NCBI RefSeq assembly: GCF_006345805.1
Contig: NW_021827530.1
Coordinates: 1-28,215, forward strand
From: Octopus sinensis
Taxonomy: Eukaryota
Reading direction: 5' to 3'
DNA: 28,215 nt
The notes under the pieces were generated by a model, which saw only the letters and a list, made by a program, of their open reading frames with translations, did not search any database and was not told the DNA's origin. The position numbers and the translations under genes were made by a program. Of the stretch, positions 18,983-19,326 are shown piece by piece; within the stretch, counting starts at the first letter, position 1; every line of letters begins with the position of its first letter.

Positions 18983-19217
18983 ATCTCATTTTACTACCCA
19001 CAAGGGGCTAAACACAGAGAGGACAAACAAGGACAGACAAACGGATTAAGTCGAGTACATCGACCCCAGTGCGTCACTGGTACTTAATTTTTCGACCCCG
19101 AAAGGATGACAGGCAAAGTCGACCTCGGCGGAATTTGAACTCAGAACGTAACGGCAGACGAAATACCGCTTAACATTTCGCCCGGCGTGCTAACGTTTCT
19201 GCCAGCTCACCACCTCT
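18983..19217 (-). mobile_element. SINE family B full-length copy with an alternative tail
   Basis: Head GGTGGTGAGCTGGCAGAAACGTTAGC, GAGTTCAAATTCC B-box-like, family B core; tail TTTAGCCCCTTGTGGG differs from the other copies. Confidence 0.9.
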
Positions 19218-19271
19218 AAAAAAAAATATGGAACGCTTCACGAATTTGCGTGTCATCTTTGCGCAGGGGTC

Positions 19272-19311
<40 letters not shown>

Positions 19312-19326
19312 ATTGCCGAAGCAATA
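19218..19326 (-). pseudogene. U6: U6 snRNA copy, near full length (probable retro-pseudogene)
   Basis: Minus strand: TATTGCTTCGGCAATACATATACTAAAATTGGAACGATACAGAGAAGATTAGCATGACCCCTGCGCAAAGATGACACGCAAATTCGTGAAGCGTTCCATA-T9. ACAGAGA box and AGC triad intact; two G>A changes relative to canonical metazoan U6 in the internal stem-loop region. Upstream is (TA)n and a repeat, with no recognisable snRNA promoter. Confidence 0.93.

Follow-up and report, generated by a model that had tools for sequence, protein, structure and literature searches.

The U6 snRNA sequence on the minus strand of the window, by which we mean the whole stretch of 28,215 nt that was analyzed (one entire contig of 28 kb in a 2.72-Gb assembly), is joined through its oligo-U end to the head of a SINE and is one of more than 100 separately made fusions in the octopus genome. 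We consider that a LINE reverse transcriptase probably finished copying a SINE RNA and then, within a single retrotransposition, took a U6 RNA as its next template by jumping to the U-rich 3′ end. The focal copy is a dead U6-SINE chimeric retrocopy with no evident function, and it is the genome-wide set, not the single copy, that carries the value of these observations because it bears on the question of ligation versus template jumping. Chimeras of U6 and retroposons are already known from mammals, platypus and lizard; what appears to be new here is the octopus set, which extends U6 chimera formation to a mollusc.

The focal U6 part, a copy of variant a at 19,222-19,327 on the minus strand, was the sole Rfam match at gathering score within the window (RF00026 at 19,327-19,222, model positions 1-105, 106.5 bits, E 4e-27), and it differs at 3 of 106 positions, +1 among them, from the promoter-bearing gene of the same variant, L002. 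It ends in a tract of nine T residues (19,218-19,226, minus strand), which is the oligo-U end of U6 plus extra T, and this is followed by an AGA linker (19,215-19,217, minus strand), directly after which the head of a tRNA-like SINE of family B begins at 19,214 in the same orientation; in ordinary copies of the SINE the head is preceded by AA at -2/-1. The layout that had been noticed at the outset, of U6, T9, about 3 nt and a SINE head in one orientation on the minus strand, is confirmed by the Rfam match and the sequence. Could the focal U6 nevertheless be a gene? An octamer and a TATA element are present in all four genes that were checked (three for U6 and one for U6atac), whereas the octamer was found upstream of none of 86 near-full dispersed U6 copies, and our promoter check detected neither octamer nor TATA at the gene positions upstream of the focal U6; it is therefore a retrocopy, and gene status is ruled out. 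Where a U6 promoter would be, there is an unrelated (TA)n-bounded repeat (19,329-19,576, no strand assigned) with a hammerhead-like motif, recognized by eye, and with further window copies at 5,095-5,321 and 22,524-22,739. The likely insertion site is a stretch of (TA)6 at the 5′ junction (19,328-19,339, minus strand), and (TA)n lies immediately upstream of 16 of the 111 U6 copies in the pooled set described below. The initial annotation had reported a (TA)n 5′ flank and no identifiable target site duplication (TSD), and both points held: an end-anchored search around the focal U6-SINE gave a score of 0, the 3′ end having been replaced by another repeat, which we call repeat D. In the assembly we found no second copy of the focal unique flank, allelic or duplicated, that could represent an empty site.

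Is this fusion an isolated accident? A strict pattern for the exact U6/SINE-B junction gave 28 matches genome-wide and a control gave 0, and all our fusion counts are lower bounds as they come from exact patterns. For an exact 23-mer from close to the U6 end there were 195 matches, and our partner census covers the first 100 of these, 29 of which were the tandem U6 gene array and its neighbors and 71 of which were dispersed; all 71 were read and one proved to be a gene, giving a sample of 70 that includes one duplicated pair. In 63 of these 70 a sense partner, a piece of a SINE or LINE, follows U6 directly. Most partners (53/70) are either a SINE head (30: 20 of A, 7 of B, 2 of C and 1 of D) or a tail unit of about 50 nt (23), another ten are diverged or truncated SINE or LINE bodies, assigned partly by eye, and of the remaining seven, three have no recognized partner, two run into (TA)n, one into an inverted piece of a SINE and one into a 12-nt remnant of a tail. 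At least nine partner types follow U6, and the U6 part begins within 12 nt of +1 in 47 of the 70 copies. Once two genes and five duplicate loci had been removed, pooling our searches gave 111 loci. A tabulation of sequences after the U6 T tract, as the initial annotation had proposed, revealed variable partners and variable junctions, the outcome it had linked to recurrent formation, and its suggestion of an invertebrate case of this process is upheld by the many loci, by the variability of junctions and partners, and by TSDs around the whole unit.

As to the U6 sequences themselves, the tandem gene array (G000:C1:141.92-141.96 Mb; L098-L118 and L172) carries a third variant of the 5′ stem-loop and its genes have the octamer at about -78, plus TATA, while for the two other variants we found one gene each, L002 and L009. 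At four of the 111 loci (L017, L033, L044 and L144) the U6 copy is immediately preceded on its 5′ side by an inverted piece of U6, as if the cDNA had folded back and primed itself.

U6 is not the only RNA that has been captured. U6atac gave 43 matches, the best 20 of which are one gene and 19 fusions (19/19 of the non-gene matches) with the same partners as U6. A longer anchor for 5S gave 70 matches and all 20 that were read are fusions, mostly with a pyrimidine or oligo-T trailer. For U2 there were five pattern matches versus 109 for U6 (14-base anchors); the U2 parts have variable ends that follow the 3′ flank of the gene, and one of their partners is the focal SINE-B subfamily. Lastly, in one case (L256:1399-1500) a tail unit follows a tRNA that has an apparent intron and a T trailer. 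This tRNA copy also has a leader and is joined to the LINE tail between (TA)n runs; it likely represents the capture of a pre-tRNA, with the insertion of a LINE behind a tRNA gene as a possible alternative. Three fusions of 5S to SINE A (L284, L285 and L287) share an identical junction and derived SINE bases. Two of them, L284 and L285, are a tandem pair, while L287 has a different flank, and together they may reflect an amplifying 5S-headed master copy, unlike the U6 fusions.

One of the tail units is the 3′ end of a LINE, since among 30 copies of it (L253-L282) the LINE continues upstream in 21 and the other nine start at the point where the fusions start, about 50 nt from the end. The LINE that supplies this unit has a reverse transcriptase domain and, going by motifs, looks CR1/L2-like; the partner at L142 looks RTE-like. 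Similar tail units with a fixed start, from several families, follow U6, U6atac and 5S. The fixed start at about 50 nt may reflect either stalling of the reverse transcriptase or cleavage of the RNA.

What kind of event joins these RNAs end to end? If our preferred reading is correct, the LINE enzyme would nick the (TA)n site and prime on the SINE tail; on reaching the SINE 5′ end, the reverse transcriptase would add a few untemplated bases, mostly A; these would base-pair with the oligo-U at the end of U6, after which synthesis would run on to the U6 +1. Repeat D would have inserted later at the 3′ end, removing the end of the tail and any duplication. The state of the partners bears on this, as 30 of the 70 unbiased partners start at the SINE head and chimeric SINE B copies keep the leader of ordinary copies, having A at -1 and at -2 before the head in 29/33 and 29/33 cases, compared to 48/55 and 42/55 in ordinary copies. 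An intact head with its leader is as expected of a primary Pol III transcript, and such transcripts have a 5′ triphosphate. In a study of the R2 reverse transcriptase (PMC8857657), untemplated additions are mostly A and are required for jumping; against our reading, the same study regards a long A overhang as nonproductive for jumping in vitro and attributes human chimeras to preligation. We infer that RNAs ending in U would pair with such an A overhang, in keeping with the preference for U6, U6atac and 5S precursors. The long A-run linkers at some junctions (up to 11) could come from adenylated U6 (PMC5855946). Full-length SINE 5′ ends, together with U6atac, 5S, U2 and tRNA as fusion partners, appear to favor a template jump of the reverse transcriptase over ligation by RtcB.

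Template switching was also proposed for the U6-Mon-1 and U6-L2 chimeras of platypus and the U6-AnolisSINE2 and U6-RTEX chimeras of lizard (Doucet et al., 2015, PMC4476161). The octopus fusions resemble these in that U6 lies in sense, 5′ of a piece of a SINE or a non-L1 LINE, and TSDs enclose the whole. The survey in that paper was of vertebrates only, and its platypus U6 parts are nearly all 5′-truncated, whereas in octopus about two thirds (47/70) start close to +1; a further difference from the cases given there is that in octopus full-length SINEs are common as partners and 5S is a frequent head. Outside the vertebrates, the WEIRD-MGL/Mg-SINE chimeras of Magnaporthe are a precedent for template switching by a LINE with preferred switch sites, although these are fungal, their head RNA is not U6 and their SINE partner is 5′-truncated (PMC2104539). 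In mammals, L1 forms chimeras with several RNAs (PMC11838501). We found no report of U6 chimeras from cephalopods or other invertebrate animals in the literature searched, which did not take in subscription journals or Repbase; a paper on LINEs in the octopus brain (PMC9115989) has no passage on snRNAs, and a hagfish SINE paper (PMC7245038) provides background only.

The chief rival to template jumping, which we regard as unlikely, is a prior ligation of the RNAs, with RtcB or an enzyme like it joining the SINE RNA to a U6 RNA that ends in a cyclic phosphate, and a single retrotransposition of the fused RNA afterwards. Ligation has been demonstrated biochemically for human U6/L1 chimeras (Moldovan et al., 2019, PMC6789731), with which the octopus fusions share a full-length U6 ending in a T tract and a strong bias to U6 and U6atac. 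That bias over U2 (109 vs. 5 matches, and 19 of 19 for U6atac) counts against jumping in that it is also predicted by ligation through a cyclic phosphate. Additionally, the 23 of 70 partners that are tail units of about 50 nt have a nearly fixed start that could be a cleavage site leaving a 5′-OH, and 49 of 89 junctions have 4-6 T. In the human chimeras as described in that paper, there are 4-6 T and L1 is variably 5′-truncated with no preferred site, whereas octopus has intact SINE heads or the fixed tail of about 50 nt, a wider range of T runs (0-19) and A-rich linkers; the focal copy, with T9 and an intact SINE head, departs from the pattern of 4-6 T, a clean join and a 5′-truncated partner. 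Purified RtcB needs both the cyclic phosphate of U6 and a 5′-OH on the partner, and gave no full-length product (0/26) with a 5′-triphosphate partner (PMC6789731), which is difficult to reconcile with the frequent retention of the full SINE 5′ end, as this should be triphosphorylated. Moreover, 5S with trailers, 3′-extended U2 and tRNA are fused likewise, although these RNAs are treated as having no cyclic phosphate (in PMC6789731 or as general knowledge), and that paper leaves the explanation of chimeras of this type undecided. The A-run linkers speak against ligation as well, as does the finding that the U6 of some metazoans has no cyclic phosphate (PMC5855946). Jumping and ligation may both operate.

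The spread of T runs, with only 49 of 89 at 4-6, also speaks for jumping, although the short ones are in part the product of later substitutions. Another feature of the junctions is the frequent CT after the T tract, for which one idea is that it derives from the gene flank, as CT comes next both at the U6atac gene and in the array of variant c. Against this, C also follows the T tract in copies of variants a and b (8 and 9 cases), the single genes of which have GG next.

The matter of ligation versus template jumping for U6 chimeras has so far been argued mostly from human L1, and the intact SINE 5′ ends and the 5S, U2 and tRNA heads described here form a large sample from nature for which ligation is a poor explanation. 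We would tentatively go further and propose that in this lineage Pol III RNAs (U6, U6atac, pre-5S and pre-tRNA) are routinely used, at their raw oligo-U 3′ ends, as jump targets by several non-L1 LINE machineries, so that nearly every dispersed U6 would be a fusion, and that U6 chimeras can arise mainly by template jumping instead of by RtcB ligation. New SINE heads would be tried out in this way, with 5S fusions able to amplify because of the internal promoter in 5S, and U6 fusions not. The fusions show raw material for the birth of new SINE heads and, if the proposal is true, the genome is an in vivo record of end-to-end template jumping and of trial heads.

Did each fusion arise in one event? 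We addressed this with an end-anchored search for direct repeats (score ≥10) using cross-locus pairs as the control. A direct repeat encloses U6 and SINE together at 11 of 33 U6/SINE-B loci (10 of 33 once one that is the tail of a neighboring SINE is set aside) compared to 29 of 1056 control pairs (Fisher p 5e-8). The other siblings (23/33) have no clear TSD by score, in some cases owing to (TA)n sites, nesting in SINEs or later insertions. A broad TSD search over 900 nt had been too noisy (24/111 vs. 44/555 at score ≥10) and was replaced by the end-anchored test. Because the focal copy lacks a TSD, its origin in a single event is extrapolated from its siblings and from the compatible divergences of its parts (U6 2/105, SINE 9/226, p 0.51), which make such an origin likely. 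It is highly improbable that a U6 gene or pseudogene was already in place and that the SINE inserted independently at its T-rich end, whether by chance or with the help of a target-specific LINE, although the missing TSD would suit this and L039, which has a truncated U6, carries behind its tail a 9-nt near-repeat of the U6 end (score 7) and may itself be an independent insertion. The initial annotation had held that a unique junction and a TSD of the SINE's own would point to such an insertion; what we found were the 28 exact junctions noted above and no sibling (0/33, score ≥8) with the U6 3′ end repeated after the SINE tail. The same result and the lack of gene flank upstream mean that the signature of a Keno-like element targeting snRNA genes is also absent from these loci. 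Furthermore, the focal U6 has no promoter upstream, a sense partner follows most dispersed U6 copies (63/70), and TSDs enclose both parts in ten siblings.

The T tract inside a transcript is a Pol III terminator, and it is barely conceivable that the focal copy belongs to a composite SINE family, headed by U6 and multiplied whole from a master copy, the other possibility raised in the initial annotation: the U6-then-SINE-B layout does recur at 28 or more loci, but the composite family is largely refuted by the diversity of junctions (32 of 33 strings distinct), with three U6 variants among the 33 loci (17 c, 9 b, 5 a and 2 truncated), at least nine partner types, and a commonest shared derived U6 substitution found in 6 of the 33. 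U6 also has no internal promoter (PMC4494074). In these respects the octopus fusions, each independent, differ from SINEU of crocodilians, snRNA-headed SINEs with master copies and U1/U2 heads (Kojima, 2015, PMC4494074), and the uniform junction and shared derived bases of that type are not seen here; the two are alike in having an snRNA-derived 5′ part on a retroposon and recurrent 5′ additions. An annotation of repeats in O. vulgaris has, as table rows only and without sequence or comment, one SINE family each under “U” and “U-L1” (PMC13282606), which could be taken in favor of a composite family. These classes may be the octopus fusions described here.

The focal SINE lies at 18,990-19,214 on the minus strand. 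The initial annotation had called it full-length, which is correct at the 5′ end but not at the 3′ end, where about the last 6 nt of the tail are missing and repeat D starts at 18,987. It had also described the tail as unlike those of other family B copies; that stands against the three further window copies which the focal head matches, but not genome-wide, and the tail marks a common SINE subfamily because the same motif occurs in 28 of the 29 closest genomic relatives. The genome search for the SINE gave 3758 first-look candidates, 40 of which were scored, the best at 94-95%. The label “tRNA-like” refers to A- and B-box-like motifs seen by eye; ARAGORN found no tRNAs in the window or in 29 SINE-B loci, Rfam gave no credible match to a structured RNA or ribozyme in the SINE at E ≤10, and its fold has a z of -0.97. 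No LINE partner emerged for SINE B, as its tail was never outside SINE copies in the 0.96 Mb of loci searched.

Repeat D (18,680-18,987, minus strand) is 5′-truncated, directly adjoins the SINE tail and has a (TA)n end; an inverted second copy is in the window at 20,042-20,312. Its genomic copies are 97-99% identical to it, with variable 5′ ends, frequent inverted pieces and a (TA)n end, and the variable ends and inverted pieces suggest a Penelope-like layout. It is likely the younger element: set against the majority of their relatives, D (24 relatives) shows 3 differences in 268 columns and the SINE (29 relatives) 9 in 226 (p 0.07, borderline for D being younger), both divergences being lower bounds as the relatives were picked as best matches. 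The simplest reading is that D came later and removed the end of the SINE tail and any target duplication. A single tripartite fusion of U6, SINE and D is possible, but D cuts into the SINE tail, D looks younger than the SINE, and the SINE is not upstream of any of the 24 other D copies.

Several U6-SINE B fusions lie within or adjoin other SINE B copies (L031, L043, L045, L050, L052, L055 and L058), and SINE B often forms head-less tandem units in which the unit start resembles the tail end. Reading the ORFs of the window by eye we saw none that resembles a host gene, and simple repeats are abundant in it. It also contains two Penelope-like GIY-YIG fragments, one at 5,854-6,432 (minus strand) with a weak Pfam match below cut-off and one at 17,685-18,050 (plus strand) with no Pfam match, LINE-like reading frames at 9,415-10,242 (minus strand) that are broken and have no informative Pfam match, and a 19-bp minisatellite of 5.1 copies with 98% identity at 21,346-21,442.
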